This document shows, piece after piece, positions 33,561 through 39,742 of a stretch of DNA of 64,000 nucleotides. Each line of letters starts with the position of its first letter. Within the stretch, counting starts at the first letter, position 1. The stretch spans positions 896,001 to 960,000 of the forward strand of contig CAWGHO010000001.1 in the NCBI GenBank assembly GCA_963822445.1. Direction: 5' to 3'. Both the position numbers and the translations under genes were made by a program. The notes below the pieces were generated by a model. The model was not told the DNA's origin and made no database searches. It saw only the letters and a program-made list of their open reading frames with translations. This DNA comes from an uncultured Acidobacteriota bacterium. Lineage in GTDB: Bacteria > Acidobacteriota > Thermoanaerobaculia > Gp7-AA8.

Positions 33561-34418
33561 ATGTCAGTTTCAGCCATGCCTTTCTCTTCAATCGGCGTAG
33601 CCCGCTCGTTCGCACCCGAGAACTCGCCATACGACTGCGTGATGGTCGATGTGACCCACCGGTGCAACATGACCTGCGCGAACTGCTATCTCCCCAACCG
33701 GGTCATTCCGGACATGGACGCGCAGTGGCTCTCCTCGATCCTGGCTCGTCTGCCGCGCGGCACCTTCATCCGCTTGACCGGCGGTGAGGCCACGCTGCGT
33801 CACGACCTGCCCGACATCATTCGCGAGGTTCGCAACCACGGCCACCATCCGGTGCTGCTGACCAACGGCCTGAAGCTCGCCGATCGCGCCTACGTGCGCG
33901 AGCTGAAGCGCGCCGGGATCCAGGTCACGTATCTTTCGTTCAGCGGCGGATTCGACGACGACCTGTACGAGAGCATCGATGAGATGCGCTGCGCGGACCG
34001 CAAGATCCGCGCGTTCGAGAACCTTCGCGTGGAGCACATGTTCACCTCGCTGGGCATGATCCTGATCCGTGACGTGAACGAGCATGAAGTGAAGAACGTG
34101 TGGAAGGCCGTGCGGCGCGCGCGGAACGTCCGCGAGCTGCACCTGCGCTCAGTCGGCGCGATGGGCCGGCACATGAACACGGTGCCGTTGACCGCCGAGG
34201 AGATGTTCGACGTGTTCTGTCGCGCCGCGGAGATTTCGCCCGACTCGATCGAGTTGCGCGAGCGCTCCGCATCGGCCGATGAGTTCTTCTTCGGCCGCGT
34301 GCACGTGCAGATGACCGAGTGGCCGGCGCTGGGCAGCAGCGTTCGCGGCCGGCTCACGCCCGAGGGGTTGATCGCGCCGTTCATGGAGCACGTGATCGCG
34401 AACGACGGCGGCTACTGA
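33561..34418 (+). CDS. Radical SAM enzyme without a SPASM/Twitch domain
   Basis: 'CNMTCANCY' CxxxCxxC, 'LTGGEAT', 'TNGLKL'. Confidence 0.9.
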   Translation: MSVSAMPFSSIGVARSFAPENSPYDCVMVDVTHRCNMTCANCYLPNRVIPDMDAQWLSSILARLPRGTFIRLTGGEATLRHDLPDIIREVRNHGHHPVLLTNGLKLADRAYVRELKRAGIQVTYLSFSGGFDDDLYESIDEMRCADRKIRAFENLRVEHMFTSLGMILIRDVNEHEVKNVWKAVRRARNVRELHLRSVGAMGRHMNTVPLTAEEMFDVFCRAAEISPDSIELRERSASADEFFFGRVHVQMTEWPALGSSVRGRLTPEGLIAPFMEHVIANDGGY

Positions 34419-35122
34419 TGACGTTTGCGGAGCAGCTCTTCGCGGCCGCGCAGCCGCTTCCGATCGAGACGAATCCCTTCGTCGTTCAGGTGATGCGTGG
34501 CGAGGCGTCGCGCGAAGCGATCCGCTCCTTCGCACTGCACCTCGCCTCGGCGACCGAGTCATTCACGCGCGCTCTGTACGCGGTGCTCAGTGTCTGTACC
34601 GATCTGCGGGCGCGGCAATCCTTCATCGGCAACGTTCTGGAGGAGGAAGGCGCGACCGGATTCGCGCCCGGCGTTGGAGCCACGTTCGACGAACGGCGCC
34701 GCCATCCGGCCATGGCCCGGCGTTTCACTCGCGCGGCGGGCGCGGACGACCACGAGATCGACGCGTTCCGGGTCGCGCCGCCGAACTGGTTCGACCGGCA
34801 GATTCGCGCGGGCAACTGGATCGGACCCTTCGCCTACATCGCCGTCGGCACCGAAGCGAATGTGCCGCCGACGTACCGCCTCCTGATCCCGGCGCTCGAG
34901 AAGCACTACGGCTTCAGCGAGAGCGACCTCGAATTTCTCATCGAGCACCTCGGCGCCGACGATCGCCACGCCCTCGAGGGCGCCATGCTCATCGAATCAA
35001 TCGCCGATACCGACGCCGCCCGGAACCAGGCACTCGAAGGCGCCCGCCGCGGCGGACGAGGCTGGTGGAAGATCCTGGAGCGCCATCAATCGAGCCTGAA
35101 ACCGACCTTCATCTTCACCTGA
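34418..35122 (+). CDS. Heme-oxygenase-like diiron oxidase (CADD/PqqC/TenA fold)
   Basis: TGATG coupling to the rSAM gene; 'NVLEEEG...RHP', 'GTEAN', 'EHLGADDRH' diiron ligand pattern. Confidence 0.78.
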   Translation: MTFAEQLFAAAQPLPIETNPFVVQVMRGEASREAIRSFALHLASATESFTRALYAVLSVCTDLRARQSFIGNVLEEEGATGFAPGVGATFDERRRHPAMARRFTRAAGADDHEIDAFRVAPPNWFDRQIRAGNWIGPFAYIAVGTEANVPPTYRLLIPALEKHYGFSESDLEFLIEHLGADDRHALEGAMLIESIADTDAARNQALEGARRGGRGWWKILERHQSSLKPTFIFT

Positions 35123-35295
35123 TACTGGGAAACCTTCCCGTCGGTGACCTTTCCGCGCATCTCCGTGACCTCGAACCAATCCACGTGCCGGAGCGTCTCC
35201 GACGCCCGCTCCACGCCCGCGGAAACGGCCTTCGCGAATGATTCCGCCGAGGTCCCGACGATCTCCACCATCTTGTAGATCTTGTTGTCAGACAT
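35086..35295 (-). CDS. Dodecin flavin-binding protein
   Basis: 'YKMVEIVGTS', 'A..TLR..DWFEV...RG', 'YQVKMKVGFRL'. Confidence 0.93.
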   Translation of the reverse strand: MSDNKIYKMVEIVGTSAESFAKAVSAGVERASETLRHVDWFEVTEMRGKVTDGKVSQYQVKMKVGFRLD

Positions 35296-35367
35296 GAACT
35301 TCCATCCTCCCGAAGCGCGAATCTTAGTGCGGTCAAGCTAGAATTGGCCGTTACGGGTGAGACGGGA

Positions 35368-36393
35368 ATGAAGGCGGCAACCATCGAACGAGTCAAACGC
35401 CGCGTGCTGCAACAGGCGGTGGCGGAGAACGTCGACGTGATTCGCGGCCTGCCCCCGCGCGCCCTCCGTCCAGCAAACCGGCTGTTCCGGGTCTGGGTAA
35501 AACGCGCGCCGTTCGTACTCGTTCCCCTGTTGCTGGCGGGCTCGACCTACCTCGCACGCCAGGATGTGACACAGCCCGCGCACGTAGAGCAGACACTCCT
35601 GTCTGCTGCTTCTGCTGTTCCAAAGGCCGAGCAGACAGGAGTGTCTGCTCTACGGAATGCGCCGCTCGAGCGCGTCACCGCGGCGGCGTTCCCCCTCGCC
35701 GTGCGGCGGGTCGTCCTCGACGCCGGTCACGGCGGATCCGACCCCGGCGCGATCGCCGACAAGGTCATCGAGAAAGACGTCACCCTCGACATCGGCCGCC
35801 GCCTTCGCACGCTTCTCGAAAAAGAAGGCTTCGAAGTCGTCTTCACGCGCTCGGATGATCGGACGATTGCTCTTCGCGATCGCGCCGTCGCCGCGAACGC
35901 CTCGAAGAGCGACATCTTCGTTTCCATCCACGTCAACACGATCCTCAAACACACCGCCAGCCGCGGCGTGGAGACGTACTACCTCGGCCCGACGAACGAC
36001 GAGCGGCTGACAAAGATCGCCGCGGCGGAGAATCGCGTGTCGGGTTACTCGATCGCCGACATGCGCAAGCTCCTCGACGGCGTGTACGCCGACGCGCGGC
36101 GCGATGAGTCGCAGGAGTTGGCCAATGCGGTTCAGCGCCAGCTTTTCGCGACGTTGAAGGCGAACGACCCGGGTATCGAGAACTGGGGCGTGAAGCGCGC
36201 GCCGTTCATCGTGCTCGTGGCCACCGACATGCCGGCCATCCTCGCGGAGGTCGGCTGTATTTCGAACGACAAAGAAGCAGCGATGCTTGGGCGTCCGGAG
36301 CACCGTCAGAAGATCGCCACCGCGCTCTTCGAAGGCATTCGCGCGTATGCGACCGCCAACGACGCACCGCCCAGGCAGGAGAAAGGAACTTGA
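35368..36393 (+). CDS. Membrane-anchored N-acetylmuramoyl-L-alanine amidase (Amidase_3)
   Basis: 'LDAGHGG.DPGA', 'EKDVTL', 'FVSIHVN', 'PAILAEVG'; basic N-terminus followed by one hydrophobic segment. Confidence 0.92.
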   Translation: MKAATIERVKRRVLQQAVAENVDVIRGLPPRALRPANRLFRVWVKRAPFVLVPLLLAGSTYLARQDVTQPAHVEQTLLSAASAVPKAEQTGVSALRNAPLERVTAAAFPLAVRRVVLDAGHGGSDPGAIADKVIEKDVTLDIGRRLRTLLEKEGFEVVFTRSDDRTIALRDRAVAANASKSDIFVSIHVNTILKHTASRGVETYYLGPTNDERLTKIAAAENRVSGYSIADMRKLLDGVYADARRDESQELANAVQRQLFATLKANDPGIENWGVKRAPFIVLVATDMPAILAEVGCISNDKEAAMLGRPEHRQKIATALFEGIRAYATANDAPPRQEKGT

Positions 36394-36396
36394 TGC

Positions 36397-37416
36397 ATGG
36401 CTGAGCTTCTCCTCGTGGGAATCGACCTCGGCACATCGCGGAGCGCAATCTCCGCATCCAACGGCGAGCGGTTCGTCGTCGACAGTTTCGTCGGCTGGCC
36501 GCTGGACATGGTCGCGAAGAAAGTCCTCAAGCGCGACGTCCTCATCGGCCATGAGGCGGTTGCCAACCGCACCATGCTCGACCTCCACCGTCCTCTCGAG
36601 CGCGGCCTGCTCAAGGAAGGCTCGGAGAAAGACGTCGAGGCGGTGCGCGAGCTGCTCAAGTACCTGCTCAAGCTCGTCGGCGTGAACGGCAAGATCAAAG
36701 CTTCGAGCGTACGGGCGGTGGTTGGCGTTCCGGCCGCGGCGCTGCGCACGAACAAGCAGTACCTGCGCAATTCGATGAAGGGCATCGTCGACAGCCTGCT
36801 CATCGTCTCCGAGCCGTTCGCTGTTGCGTATGGGCTCGACGCGCTGCTGCACACGATGATCATCGACATCGGCGCGGGCACGACGGACTTCTGCGTGATG
36901 AAGGGCCGGTATCCGACCGAAGAGGATCAACGGACGTTGACCGTTGCCGGCGATTCCATCGACACGCAGCTTCTGAAGCTGATCGAAGAGCGCTACCCGC
37001 AGGCCAACGTGACCGTGTTCATGGTCCGCGAGTGGAAGGAAAAGTACAGCTTCGTCGGCGACCGCGAGGAGCGGTGCATCGTCACCGCGCCGGTGAAAGG
37101 CGTCCCGACGGAGCTCGACATCACCGCGGAAATGCGCACGGCGTGCGAAACGCTGCTGGCGCCGGTGACCGAGACGATGCTCGACCTGCTCGCGCGCGTC
37201 GAGCCGGAGTTCCAGGAGCGCGTTCGCCAGAACATCATCCTGTCCGGAGGCGGCGGCCTGATTCGCGGCCTGCCCCAGGCACTCGAGGCCGCGCTGAAGT
37301 CCGTCGGCGGAGGCAGCGTCCGCTACATGGACGATCCGGTGTTCGTCGGATCGGACGGCGGACTGGCGCTGGCCACTGATGCTCCGGAAGGGGACTGGGA
37401 AAAATTGACAGCGTGA
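36397..37416 (+). CDS. Bacterial actin, MamK-like
   Basis: 'GIDLGTS', 'VVGVPA', 'VSEPFAVAYGLD', 'IDIGAGTTD.C..KG..P..EDQ.TL..AG', 'KEKYSFVG', 'SGGGGLIRGL'. Confidence 0.85.
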   Translation: MAELLLVGIDLGTSRSAISASNGERFVVDSFVGWPLDMVAKKVLKRDVLIGHEAVANRTMLDLHRPLERGLLKEGSEKDVEAVRELLKYLLKLVGVNGKIKASSVRAVVGVPAAALRTNKQYLRNSMKGIVDSLLIVSEPFAVAYGLDALLHTMIIDIGAGTTDFCVMKGRYPTEEDQRTLTVAGDSIDTQLLKLIEERYPQANVTVFMVREWKEKYSFVGDREERCIVTAPVKGVPTELDITAEMRTACETLLAPVTETMLDLLARVEPEFQERVRQNIILSGGGGLIRGLPQALEAALKSVGGGSVRYMDDPVFVGSDGGLALATDAPEGDWEKLTA

Positions 37417-37420
37417 GTAC

Positions 37421-38286
<866 letters not shown>

Positions 38287-38305
38287 CAATCAAGGAGGCT
38301 CTGCG

Positions 38306-39742
38306 ATGAAGTCCTGGCTGTCCCTTCCCGTTGCCGCGCTCATTCTCCTCGCGGCATGTACGACCACCTCTCCCCCGCCGGCTGACCCGGTGACCGCCGC
38401 GCCGGTTACCGACGCGGCGCCGGCTCCCGCACCAGCGCCCGCTCCGGCACCTGCACCGATCGCGTATCAGGTCCCCGTCGAGTATCACAAGCTCGACAAC
38501 GGCCTGAAGGTCGTGTTGTCGCAGGATCGCACCGCACCGACGGTCGCCGTCGGCGTCTACTACAACATCGGTTTTCGCGTGGAGCCTCGCGACCGCACCG
38601 GCTTCGCCCACCTGTTCGAGCATCTGATGTTCCAAGGCTCGGACAACCTCGGCAAGATGGAGTTCATCAAGCTCATTCAGTCGAACGGCGGCGTCCTGAA
38701 CGGCTCCACGCGCTTCGACTTCACGAATTACTTCGAGATCGTCCCCGCGCACACGCTGCAGACCATCCTCTGGGCGGAAGCGGATCGCATGCGCAGCCTG
38801 GCGATCAACCAGGACAACCTGAAGAACCAGCAGGAAGTCGTGAAGAACGAGGTCCGCGTCAACGTCCTCAATCAGCCGTACGGCGGATTCCCCTGGCTGG
38901 ACATGCCTCAGTACGCGAACGCGAACTGGTACAACGCCCACAATTTCTACGGCGATCTGACCGACCTCGATGCGGCGACGCTCGAAGACGCGAGCAGCTT
39001 CTTCAAGACCTACTACGCGCCGAACAACGCCTCGATTGCGATCACCGGCGACTTCGATCCGGCGCAGGCACTCGCCTGGGTGAAGCAGTATTTCGGACCG
39101 ATTGCAGCGCAGCCGCAGCCCGCGAAGGTGGACATCAGCGAGCCCCGTCAGACCGCCGAGAAGCGCGCCACGAAGACAGACGACAAGGCCACACGTCCCG
39201 CGCTGGGCCTGGCCTGGCATGCGCCGGAACAGAACACTCCCGAGTACTACGCGATGGGTCTCATCGACCAGATCCTCGCCTCGGGCAAGGACAGCTGGCT
39301 GTATCAGGACGTGGTGCAGAAGCGCGGTCTCACCGGTGAGATCGGCTCGTCGATCAACCTCCTCGGCAACATGTTCAACATCGACGGCCCGACGCTCTAC
39401 ATGGCCTGGCTGTTCCACGACAAAGACAAGCCGGCCGACGACATCATCAAGGCCTTCGACGAGAACATCGTCCGCCTGCAGACGACCCAGGTCGACGCGG
39501 AGACGCTGAATCGCGCTCGCGTGAAGATGCGCTCCGCGCTGTACGGCGACATCGAAGGATTTTTTGGGTTCGGCCGCGCGGACCTGCTGGCCTCCTTCGC
39601 ACTGTTCGACGACGATCCGCACAAGATCAATCGCATCGAGTCGGAGTTCGCGAAGGTCACTCCCGAACTGATTCAGAAGACCGCGCAAGAGTACCTGCGC
39701 CCGACGAACCGCACGGTCCTCACGATCGTGCCGAAGGGATAA
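38306..39742 (+). CDS. M16B zinc peptidase, catalytic subunit (lipoprotein)
   Basis: Lipobox 'LAAC'; (PA)n linker; 'GFAHLFEHLMF' HxxEH; 'VVKNE'. Confidence 0.93.
   Translation: MKSWLSLPVAALILLAACTTTSPPPADPVTAAPVTDAAPAPAPAPAPAPAPIAYQVPVEYHKLDNGLKVVLSQDRTAPTVAVGVYYNIGFRVEPRDRTGFAHLFEHLMFQGSDNLGKMEFIKLIQSNGGVLNGSTRFDFTNYFEIVPAHTLQTILWAEADRMRSLAINQDNLKNQQEVVKNEVRVNVLNQPYGGFPWLDMPQYANANWYNAHNFYGDLTDLDAATLEDASSFFKTYYAPNNASIAITGDFDPAQALAWVKQYFGPIAAQPQPAKVDISEPRQTAEKRATKTDDKATRPALGLAWHAPEQNTPEYYAMGLIDQILASGKDSWLYQDVVQKRGLTGEIGSSINLLGNMFNIDGPTLYMAWLFHDKDKPADDIIKAFDENIVRLQTTQVDAETLNRARVKMRSALYGDIEGFFGFGRADLLASFALFDDDPHKINRIESEFAKVTPELIQKTAQEYLRPTNRTVLTIVPKG

Follow-up and report, generated by a model that had tools for sequence, protein, structure and literature searches.

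A MamK-like actin gene directly downstream of a membrane-anchored peptidoglycan amidase gene forms a conserved pair outside magnetosome clusters

Introduction

Bacterial actins organise wall synthesis (MreB), division (FtsA), plasmids (ParM) and magnetosomes (MamK). The cytoskeleton can also dictate where hydrolases act, as with MreBH and LytE in Bacillus subtilis, and wall hydrolases are thought to be placed indirectly, via periplasmic activators or targeting domains. The present analysis concerns a 64,000-nucleotide stretch of the genome of an uncultured Acidobacteriota bacterium (contig C1, positions 896001-960000; this whole stretch is called the window below), in which a gene encoding a membrane-anchored peptidoglycan amidase is directly followed by a gene encoding a MamK-like actin. 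The same two genes stand side by side in at least five bacterial phyla without magnetosome genes. We lean towards a reading in which a MamK-like filament is coupled to the amidase through a tail helix of that enzyme, and places or organises it.

We know of no function for three described MamK relatives, namely BeeR, Bbp and a protein of Saltatorellota. According to the main text of its description, BeeR is a three-stranded tubular actin of non-magnetotactic Verrucomicrobiota, related to MamK (25–30% identity), of unknown function and with a disordered N-terminal extension of 30–50 residues (PDB 8r2n; PMC11929497). The actin described here is likewise a MamK relative in non-magnetotactic bacteria, but it has no such extension and is closer to MamK, with E-values against PDB chains of 1.4e-76 for MamK 5ljw, 8e-37 for BeeR 8r2n and 3.5e-13 for MreB. 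An amidase partner is not mentioned in the main text on BeeR (PMC11929497). As given in the main text of another study, Bbp ('big bacteria protein') is a MamK-like actin of Candidatus Electrothrix gigas and giant sulfur bacteria, and its operon, found in giant or filamentous bacteria, consists of the actin, a hypothetical protein and a Kelch-domain protein (PMC10580974). Bbp resembles the actin described here in being a MamK-like actin that occurs besides MreB in Desulfobacterota and Gammaproteobacteria without magnetosomes, and it differs by its Kelch operon; the word 'amidase' occurs 0 times in that main text (PMC10580974), and Bbp sequences are absent from the trees presented below. A Saltatorellota MamK-like protein forms filaments in Escherichia coli (10.1101/817700), and a mamK homologue of Thiomargarita adjoins a flotillin-like gene (preprint).

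Magnetosome MamK itself (NF040964; PDB 5ljv, 5ljw, 5jyg) shares with the amidase-linked actin the fold, the nucleotide-binding motifs, a C-terminal W-x-x-L and the lack of a long N-terminal extension. The linked actin differs in belonging to a separate clade, in scoring below the MamK family cut-off, in its amidase partner, in residing in a genome without mam genes found, and at positions 124 and 134.

In ParM-ParR and MreB-RodZ, too, the link between a filament-forming actin and its client is a short cytoplasmic helix or domain in a partner protein from an adjacent gene, and the ParR helix binds ParM at the filament end in a pocket equivalent to the IA/IIA groove predicted here. The difference is that here the wall hydrolase itself would be the client, acting in the periplasm and connected to the docking helix via one membrane span, and that Pfam finds no DNA-binding or RodZ-like domain in the pair. 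With AmiA, AmiB and AmiC the amidase shares an Amidase_3 domain, apparently with the Gram-negative-type insert. Unlike these LytM-activated enzymes, and unlike MreBH-LytE, it carries a putatively cytoplasmic tail and a membrane anchor in place of AMIN or LysM, which implies direct rather than indirect coupling of the enzyme to the filament. An actin plus a docking partner is a known scheme; a MamK-like actin wired to an amidase is undescribed as far as our searches reach, since full-text searches, with subscription journals and supplements outside their reach, returned no literature linking the two; the single paper that mentions actin-like proteins, MamK, amidase and peptidoglycan together concerns Bacillus nanotubes.

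If the reading is correct, a hydrolase wired to a cytoplasmic actin by its own tail would represent a new control over the site of wall cutting, and a large group of non-magnetotactic MamK-like actins would receive its first testable function. The module is small, with two genes and a docking peptide of ~25 residues containing an invariant Asn, and is directly testable in vitro. The pair points to a cytoskeleton-guided wall-remodelling system not described before, the function of which we infer.

Identity of the actin and genomic background

In the raw sequence the amidase TGA ends at 36393 and, after a 3-bp spacer, the actin ATG follows at 36397 (...AGGAGAAAGGAACTTGAtgcATGGCT), in agreement with the initial annotation of the window. 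All of the actin peptides quoted there (VGWPLD, VSEPFAVAYGLD, IDIGAGTTDFCVMKGRYPTEEDQRTLTVAG, KEKYSFVG and W-E-K-L near the end) are present in the translation, and the MamK segments that it cited agree with the aligned PDB MamK chains (vgypkd, vsepfmvgygld, vdigagttdicalkg..pedq.tl..ag and keqfsfvg). The protein resembles MamK much more than MreB in family scores, PDB E-values and identities alike. Against NCBIfam MamK (NF040964), the actin reaches 376.7 bits over model positions 1–331 of 335 (377.1 bits in the genome-wide search), below the cut-off of 400. It scores 217.5 bits on BeeR (NF053558), below the cut-off of 530, and only 53–73.3 bits on the NCBIfam MreB models (cut-offs 293–515), with 66.8 bits on MreB TIGR00904 (below the cut-off of 365.75); the score on Pfam MreB_Mbl is 82.5 bits. 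Its identity to the MamK of Magnetospirillum sp. UT-4 is 40% in an end-to-end alignment, and 25% to the MreB of the same genome. The phosphate-1, connect, phosphate-2 and adenosine motifs of actin-fold ATPases (DLGTS, VSEPFAVAYGLD, DIGAGTTD and SGGGG) align with the MamK chains, and these nucleotide-binding positions are invariant across 47 linked actins. The N-terminus starts with MAELLLVGIDLG, 4 residues before the first conserved strand, and has no extension. Judged by its sequence, the protein is a MamK-like actin that is neither MreB nor magnetosome MamK.

Related proteins are publicly annotated as 'rod shape-determining protein', a label that is misleading for the amidase-linked actins. 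Among the candidates scored, 5209 protein clusters are similar to the actin at E <= 1e-20, and the module is abundant in soil and sediment lineages.

The genome belongs to the class Thermoanaerobaculia, has a size of 6.0 Mb in three contigs, is 94.74% complete and carries one MamK-like gene according to a profile search. Nearly identical proteins in public data carry the label Thermoanaerobaculia or Acidobacteria. Its MreB (519.9 bits) is located at C2:164492-165472, with MreC at C2:166007-166429. The surroundings of the pair are free of mam and mreCD genes, in line with the initial annotation, the genomic mreB-mreC being on contig C2. Fourteen Mam proteins from the mamAB-type operon of a Magnetospirillum locus (L063), ten of which are named by NCBIfam (MamH, E, L, M, O, P, A, Q, B and S), were used as tblastn queries. 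MamH, J, L, M, N, O, P, R and S had no match in the whole genome at this level of completeness, the only matches obtained were to generic HtrA, TPR, LemA and CDF proteins scattered over other contigs, and a magnetosome cluster was not found. The search thus yielded no magnetosome island that could explain the actin as a displaced mamK, a possibility which had been raised at the outset.

Conservation of the pair

Within the family of the source genome, the amidase lies directly upstream of the actin in 29 of 30 loci, and the 30th (L023) has only 73 bp of upstream sequence. The same arrangement is found in all 20 loci from 13 other families of the class. A scan of a species collection gave at least 529 confirmed relatives, of which the best 80 were inspected. 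The best 40 are magnetotactic-type mamK loci; none of them has the amidase upstream, and 24 have two or more mam genes in their flanks. In the next 40, which are distant and non-magnetotactic, the amidase is upstream in 31, from Nitrospirota (including Thermodesulfovibrionales and Candidatus Sulfobium), Desulfobulbaceae and other Thermodesulfobacteriota, Rokubacteriota and Gammaproteobacteria. The nine distant loci without the amidase belong to Planctomycetota-type metagenome-assembled genomes (MAGs), a Thermoplasmata archaeon, a Desulfovibrionales MAG and two unclassified MAGs. When open reading frames (ORFs) within ±7 kb of the actin were clustered for 61 loci, only the actin (61/61) and the amidase (52/61) were common across groups. 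The pair moves as a unit amid otherwise unrelated neighbours. In the window the proposed module is complete, with an amidase upstream on the same strand that has the Asn motif, one membrane segment and Amidase_3, followed by an actin of the linked clade.

In 151 sampled genomes of the class, three of which are unpublished (G104, G135 and G004), the actin is present in 97, in single copy. All 97 have an amidase match at E <= 6e-50; most of the matches listed reach the N-terminal region of the amidase, and some cover the catalytic part only. The 54 actin-negative genomes have a paralogue match only (1e-25 to 5e-39), restricted to the catalytic domain among the matches listed and corresponding to a ~530-aa amidase. 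The cognate amidase is therefore found in 97/97 actin-positive versus 0/54 actin-negative genomes. Presence and absence vary even within genera (g14, g38 and g55), and the actin and amidase genes are therefore gained and lost together. Elsewhere in the phylum the actin is rare, occurring in 21 of 251 sampled genomes, with only 5 of these 21 outside the class. Because the adjacency is conserved across phyla and co-occurrence in the 151 class genomes is perfect, the association of amidase and actin is far beyond chance. These counts settle in favour of the pair the question, put forward in the initial annotation, of whether the pairing is conserved.

Twelve Nitrospirota-type loci (Nitrospirota and related MAGs) have, immediately downstream of the actin, a gene for a protein that combines a receiver domain with a membrane segment and a C-terminal SPOR domain (examples in Table 1). 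SPOR domains bind glycan stripped of peptides by amidases, so this neighbour fits wall cleavage as the output of the module. The receiver-SPOR protein may be a regulatory or product-sensing third module member in this lineage.

Anatomy of the amidase

The product of the first gene matches Pfam Amidase_3 (PF01520) with 167.4 bits (4.1e-49), above the cut-off of 27. Pfam detects only this domain, and neither AMIN nor LysM as a targeting domain. The protein remains below all NCBIfam amidase cut-offs, with scores of 97.1 versus 700 for AmiC (NF038267), 92.7 versus 400 for AmiA (NF007652), 89.4 versus 532 for AmiB (NF007751) and 122 versus 222 for CwlD. The mechanical ORF start is an alternative in-frame TTG at 35344, which would give a 349-aa product. 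The ATG at 35368 is favoured over this TTG, as the N-termini of orthologues start 5–12 residues ahead of the tail motif.

This motif was located by a regular expression in 47 amidase ORFs, and those ORFs that lack it are truncated at contig ends. Its N21 is invariant in 47/47 aligned tails from five phyla, and the motif is shared by orthologue N-termini of all five (e.g. KVRKAILRGVYEDNLRIIGK in Nitrospirota); the full-length orthologue of locus L049 has a variant in which D replaces N. From the motif to the hydrophobic segment, the 47 orthologues have a median of 7 K/R versus 1 D/E. In the window amidase, residues 1–46 (counted from the ATG) contain 12 K/R versus 3 D/E and are followed by the hydrophobic residues 47–63, which matches the basic N-terminus of about 45 aa described earlier. 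A 19-residue Kyte-Doolittle window of at least 1.6 is present in 46 of the 47 orthologues, at a median of 33 residues past the motif start; the best 19-mer of the window amidase is 1.47, lower because it overlaps the basic stretch. The order of parts, i.e. motif, basic linker, one hydrophobic segment, a linker of ~65 residues and the catalytic domain, is constant in 46–47 of the 47 orthologues. Following the positive-inside rule, by which the basic flank of a membrane segment is on the cytoplasmic side, the tail would be cytoplasmic and the enzyme domain periplasmic.

The H/E/H/E positions (GHGG, EKD, SIH and AEVG, i.e. H121, E135, H188 and E294 in ATG numbering), which we take to be the zinc ligands and the catalytic Glu, are invariant in 50–52 of 52 linked amidases, with contig ends accounting for the gaps. 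By these residues the catalytic domain is intact, and their invariance argues that enzymatic activity is under selection. The amidase aligns over the whole catalytic region, including the insert (residues 207–262), to AmiB 3ne8, AmiA 8c2o and AmiC 4bin. CwlV, LytH and similar chains align only up to approximately residues 206–220. The alignment over this AmiA/B/C-type insert suggests that the amidase may be an activator-dependent enzyme. An origin from phages, with the amidase as a signal-arrest-release endolysin, was considered and rejected, as PHROGs gave only generic endolysin and partition-protein matches and the pair is single-copy and widely held in the class. In one draft genome (G139:C213:3297-3994, locus L029), the match to the linked amidase is split into two parts that lie in different frames, due to a frameshift or an assembly error, and the adjacent actin is intact.

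Table 1. Coordinates of the amidase-actin locus in the window and of receiver-SPOR genes at other loci
Feature	Location	Strand	Details	Basis
N-acetylmuramoyl-L-alanine amidase	35368..36393	+	Bitopic, 341 aa from ATG	ORF list; Pfam Amidase_3
Conserved, putatively cytoplasmic tail motif	35389..35448	+	Residues 8-27 (RVKRRVLQQAVAENVDVIRG); predicted actin-docking helix	Regular expression and alignment
Basic linker	35449..35505	+	Residues 28-46	K/R versus D/E counts
Single hydrophobic membrane segment	35506..35556	+	Residues 47-63 (APFVLVPLLLAGSTYLA)	Kyte-Doolittle scan
Putative periplasmic Amidase_3 catalytic domain	35710..36342	+	With regulatory-region insert; residues 123-333 of the 349-aa form	Pfam
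Actin ribosome-binding site	36377..36387	+	AGGAGAAAGGA, AGGAG-type, within the amidase 3' end, ~10 nt before the ATG	Raw sequence
MamK-like actin	36397..37416	+	339 aa; member of the amidase-linked clade	ORF list; NCBIfam MamK; tree
Alpha/beta hydrolase	37421..38227	+	Lineage-specific neighbour, outside the conserved pair	Pfam Hydrolase_4, Abhydrolase_1
Receiver-membrane segment-SPOR gene, example 1	L099:11055-12431	+		Domain search
Receiver-membrane segment-SPOR gene, example 2	L102:10980-12320	+		Domain search
Receiver-membrane segment-SPOR gene, example 3	L117:3496-4770	+		Domain search
Receiver-membrane segment-SPOR gene, example 4	L109:10947-12044	+		Domain search

Predicted contact between tail and actin

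A complex of the tail and the actin was predicted from an actin alignment of 47 rows and a tail alignment of 47 rows and 46 residues. The interaction prediction score from aligned errors (ipSAE) was 0.81, 0.80 and 0.84 in three runs, compared with 0.15 for the best of three controls. At that mark, 58 of 80 solved complexes and 2 of 110 mismatched pairs pass in a calibration that is only approximate here, custom alignments having been used. The predicted local distance difference test value of the partner was at least 68, and contact agreement between runs was at least 86%. Tail residues 6–30, containing the motif, are placed on actin residues 120–124, 134–151, 170–172 and 325–338. These parts of the actin comprise the SEPFAVAYGLD connector (134–151) and the C-terminal helix with the conserved Trp (325–338), which together make up the IA/IIA groove between the two subdomains. 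From the tail, the invariant N21 is predicted to touch actin residues 134–137 and 337. The model thus supports binding, with the tail helix predicted to dock in the IA/IIA groove.

Position 124 of the actin is R/K in 58/58 linked actins versus L in 95% of magnetotactic MamK, and position 134 is L in 98% of linked actins versus A in 75% of magnetotactic MamK. Such differences at two interface positions would fit a partner particular to the clade. F141, Y145, L150 and G170, the core of the groove, are conserved in all MamK-like groups. The role of the amidase N-tail as the link to the actin, suggested in the initial annotation together with a structure prediction of the two, has gained support from the motif conserved across phyla and from the predicted contact, in which that motif occupies the groove.

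Phylogeny

A first tree was built from 107 MamK-like actins and the MreB of the genome. All 58 amidase-linked rows are on one side of a branch with a Shimodaira-Hasegawa-like approximate likelihood ratio test (SH-aLRT) support of 100, and the 49 rows on the other side are magnetotactic MamK, Planctomycetota-type and Thermoplasmata sequences. When rooted on the single MreB (branch length 10), the linked actins are drawn as a grade with MamK nested inside. When the linked rows were constrained to form a clade, the log-likelihood of the best tree rose by 8.68 units over that of the free quick tree (p-value of the approximately unbiased test 0.679). In a second tree with 30 further superfamily representatives, the linked actins form a clade (SH-aLRT 99), which includes P0126 and P0155 of unknown context, and magnetotactic MamK forms a separate clade (99). 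The idea that MamK evolved from amidase-linked actins was rejected, as the nesting is unsupported: the constrained tree is better and broader sampling gave a clade. The root, and thus the origin of MamK and the ancestral function, is not settled by these trees; none of the 20 representatives scanned for rooting with BeeR reached the BeeR cut-off.

The actin does not nest within MreB, which is a very long outgroup branch, consistent with the TIGR00904 score and the identity to MreB given above. The initial description of the protein as a MamK-clade filament needs to be narrowed: it is a member of the MamK-like superfamily, but it stands outside the magnetosome MamK clade, in a separate amidase-linked clade. 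By protein names, this superfamily also includes Planctomycetota, Verrucomicrobiota, Gemmatimonadota and ANME-2 lineages.

Proposed function and alternative explanations

The pair would represent a self-contained two-gene module made of an inner-membrane amidase of the AmiA/B/C type and a MamK-like actin. The amidase would have its N-terminus in the cytoplasm, cross the membrane once and expose its catalytic domain to the periplasm, and the actin would polymerise in the cytoplasm. The N-terminal helix of the amidase is predicted to insert in the hydrophobic IA/IIA groove of the actin, by which the filament would be tethered to the membrane and the amidase clustered or positioned from the cell interior. 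Cleavage of peptide stems from peptidoglycan would then be restricted to sites set by the filament, for cell separation, shape or local wall remodelling. Tethering or positioning of the peptidoglycan amidase is probably what the filament does, a function that we infer from the gene pair.

Several points weigh against this account. No division, elongation or appendage gene was found as a conserved neighbour in the 61 loci (±7 kb), and the cellular process is a guess. The genome contains two further Amidase_3 genes, one being the ~530-aa type found in all 151 class genomes, so the module would be accessory and not the core separation amidase. Since the AmiA/B/C-type insert is apparently kept, a periplasmic activator may be needed, and none is encoded in the module. 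The complex score is the model's own confidence, and as groove-binding helices are common for actins, this likeness may inflate it. If subunits of the filament also contact one another lengthwise through this groove, tail binding would be limited to monomers or filament ends, which would change the mechanism. Finally, the taxonomic spread is a lower bound, as it is drawn from the best 80 relatives.

A bolder version, conceivable though on the unlikely side, is that the pair is a cytomotive wall-cutting machine in at least five phyla, in which ATP-driven growth or treadmilling moves or patterns the amidase via a ParR-like helix. If so, wall work and not magnetosome alignment would be an old and widespread job of the MamK-like superfamily.

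Another possibility might be that the amidase mainly anchors the filament to membrane and wall, that the cargo is an inclusion, a compartment, DNA or a polar complex, and that cleavage is secondary. The predicted contact fits anchoring equally well, no wall-synthesis or division gene is among the conserved neighbours of the 61 loci, and MamK-family filaments organise organelles via adaptor proteins (PMC10653835). However, the catalytic positions are invariant in the 52 linked amidases, the clustered loci hold no third clade-wide conserved gene as a cargo adaptor, and the sole recurrent extra gene carries SPOR, pointing to the amidase product rather than to an organelle. Anchoring as the main role therefore appears unlikely to us.

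We hold about the same low expectation for a ParMRC-like, end-tracking arrangement, in which the tail binds the growing end or monomers, such that the amidase is pushed or dragged through the membrane as the filament polymerises, or actin is nucleated or sequestered by the tail, with no static scaffold involved. The predicted site is the IA/IIA groove, where ParR binds ParM, and the 3-bp spacing suggests near-equal synthesis of both proteins. On the other hand, this groove may or may not be free along the filament, and the dynamics of MamK differ from those of ParM, which speaks against this arrangement.

The two genes could also be mere neighbours that share an operon and a pathway, with products that do not touch, the tail motif binding a lipid or a divisome protein and the filament acting elsewhere. 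Adjacent genes often pass complex prediction without binding (7/44 blind neighbours, by the description of the prediction tool), and F141, Y145, L150 and G170 are conserved beyond the linked clade. Such an explanation is very improbable considering the perfect joint presence and absence in the 151 genomes, including within-genus differences, the retention of the pair over five phyla amid unrelated neighbours, an ipSAE 0.66 above the best control, and the clade specificity of interface residues 124 and 134. A mamK displaced from a magnetosome island or left as its relic would agree with the high MamK similarity, and an additional MreB for rod elongation with the public label, but both can practically be dismissed given the outcome of the Mam search in the 94.74%-complete genome and the position outside the magnetotactic MamK clade in the first case, and the family scores far below the MreB cut-offs, the low identity and the separate genomic mreB-mreC in the second.

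Transcription and neighbouring genes

The 3-bp gap suggests co-transcription and coupled translation, and amidase and actin are probably co-transcribed. A soil metatranscriptome contig of 103 nt is identical to the window across the amidase-actin junction (36364-36465), which is a weak hint of co-transcription, with DNA carry-over being possible. The remaining contigs of this run match only short conserved parts at lower identity; the single run holds a small share (0.06) of the stretch, and its contigs cover 6 of 30 bins. A promoter and terminator scan of 34800-38600 yielded 0 promoter-like sites and 1 terminator-like site (minus strand), below shuffled sequences, and is uninformative in this G+C-rich genome.

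Downstream, an alpha/beta hydrolase gene starts 4 bp past the actin stop. It was considered as a third member and rejected, as 11/30 same-family loci and 0/20 other-family loci have a homologue no more than 1.5 kb from the actin. Upstream of the pair are a radical-SAM gene (33561..34418, +), overlapped by a Haem_oxygenas_2 'iron-containing redox enzyme' gene (34319..35122, +), and a convergent dodecin gene (35086..35295, -); a dodecin gene adjoins the amidase in 7 of the 30 same-family loci.

Other MamK-like actins

Many MamK-like actins (39–45% identity) have N-terminal extensions of ~190–900 residues, with a total length of 523–1232 aa (P0132, P0133, P0135, P0136, P0138, P0139, P0142, P0147, P0154 and P0158). 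These extensions were considered as amidase fusions, which was rejected since no Pfam domain was found in 10/10 scanned. The five extended actins included in the broader tree diverge near the base of the superfamily. MamK-like actins with 42–45% identity also occur in archaeal MAGs, namely at locus L107 (Thermoplasmata), which has no adjacent amidase, and in the P0145 cluster (ANME-2 / Methanosarcinales). Within magnetotactic-type MamK, the actins of L072, L073, L076, L079, L091 and L093 (Desulfobulbaceae, Desulfurivibrio and related) form a subclade with an SH-aLRT of 99. No mam matches were found in their 10-kb flanks with alphaproteobacterial queries, and no amidase; these loci could represent divergent magnetosome clusters or another, non-magnetosome use, possibly Bbp-like.

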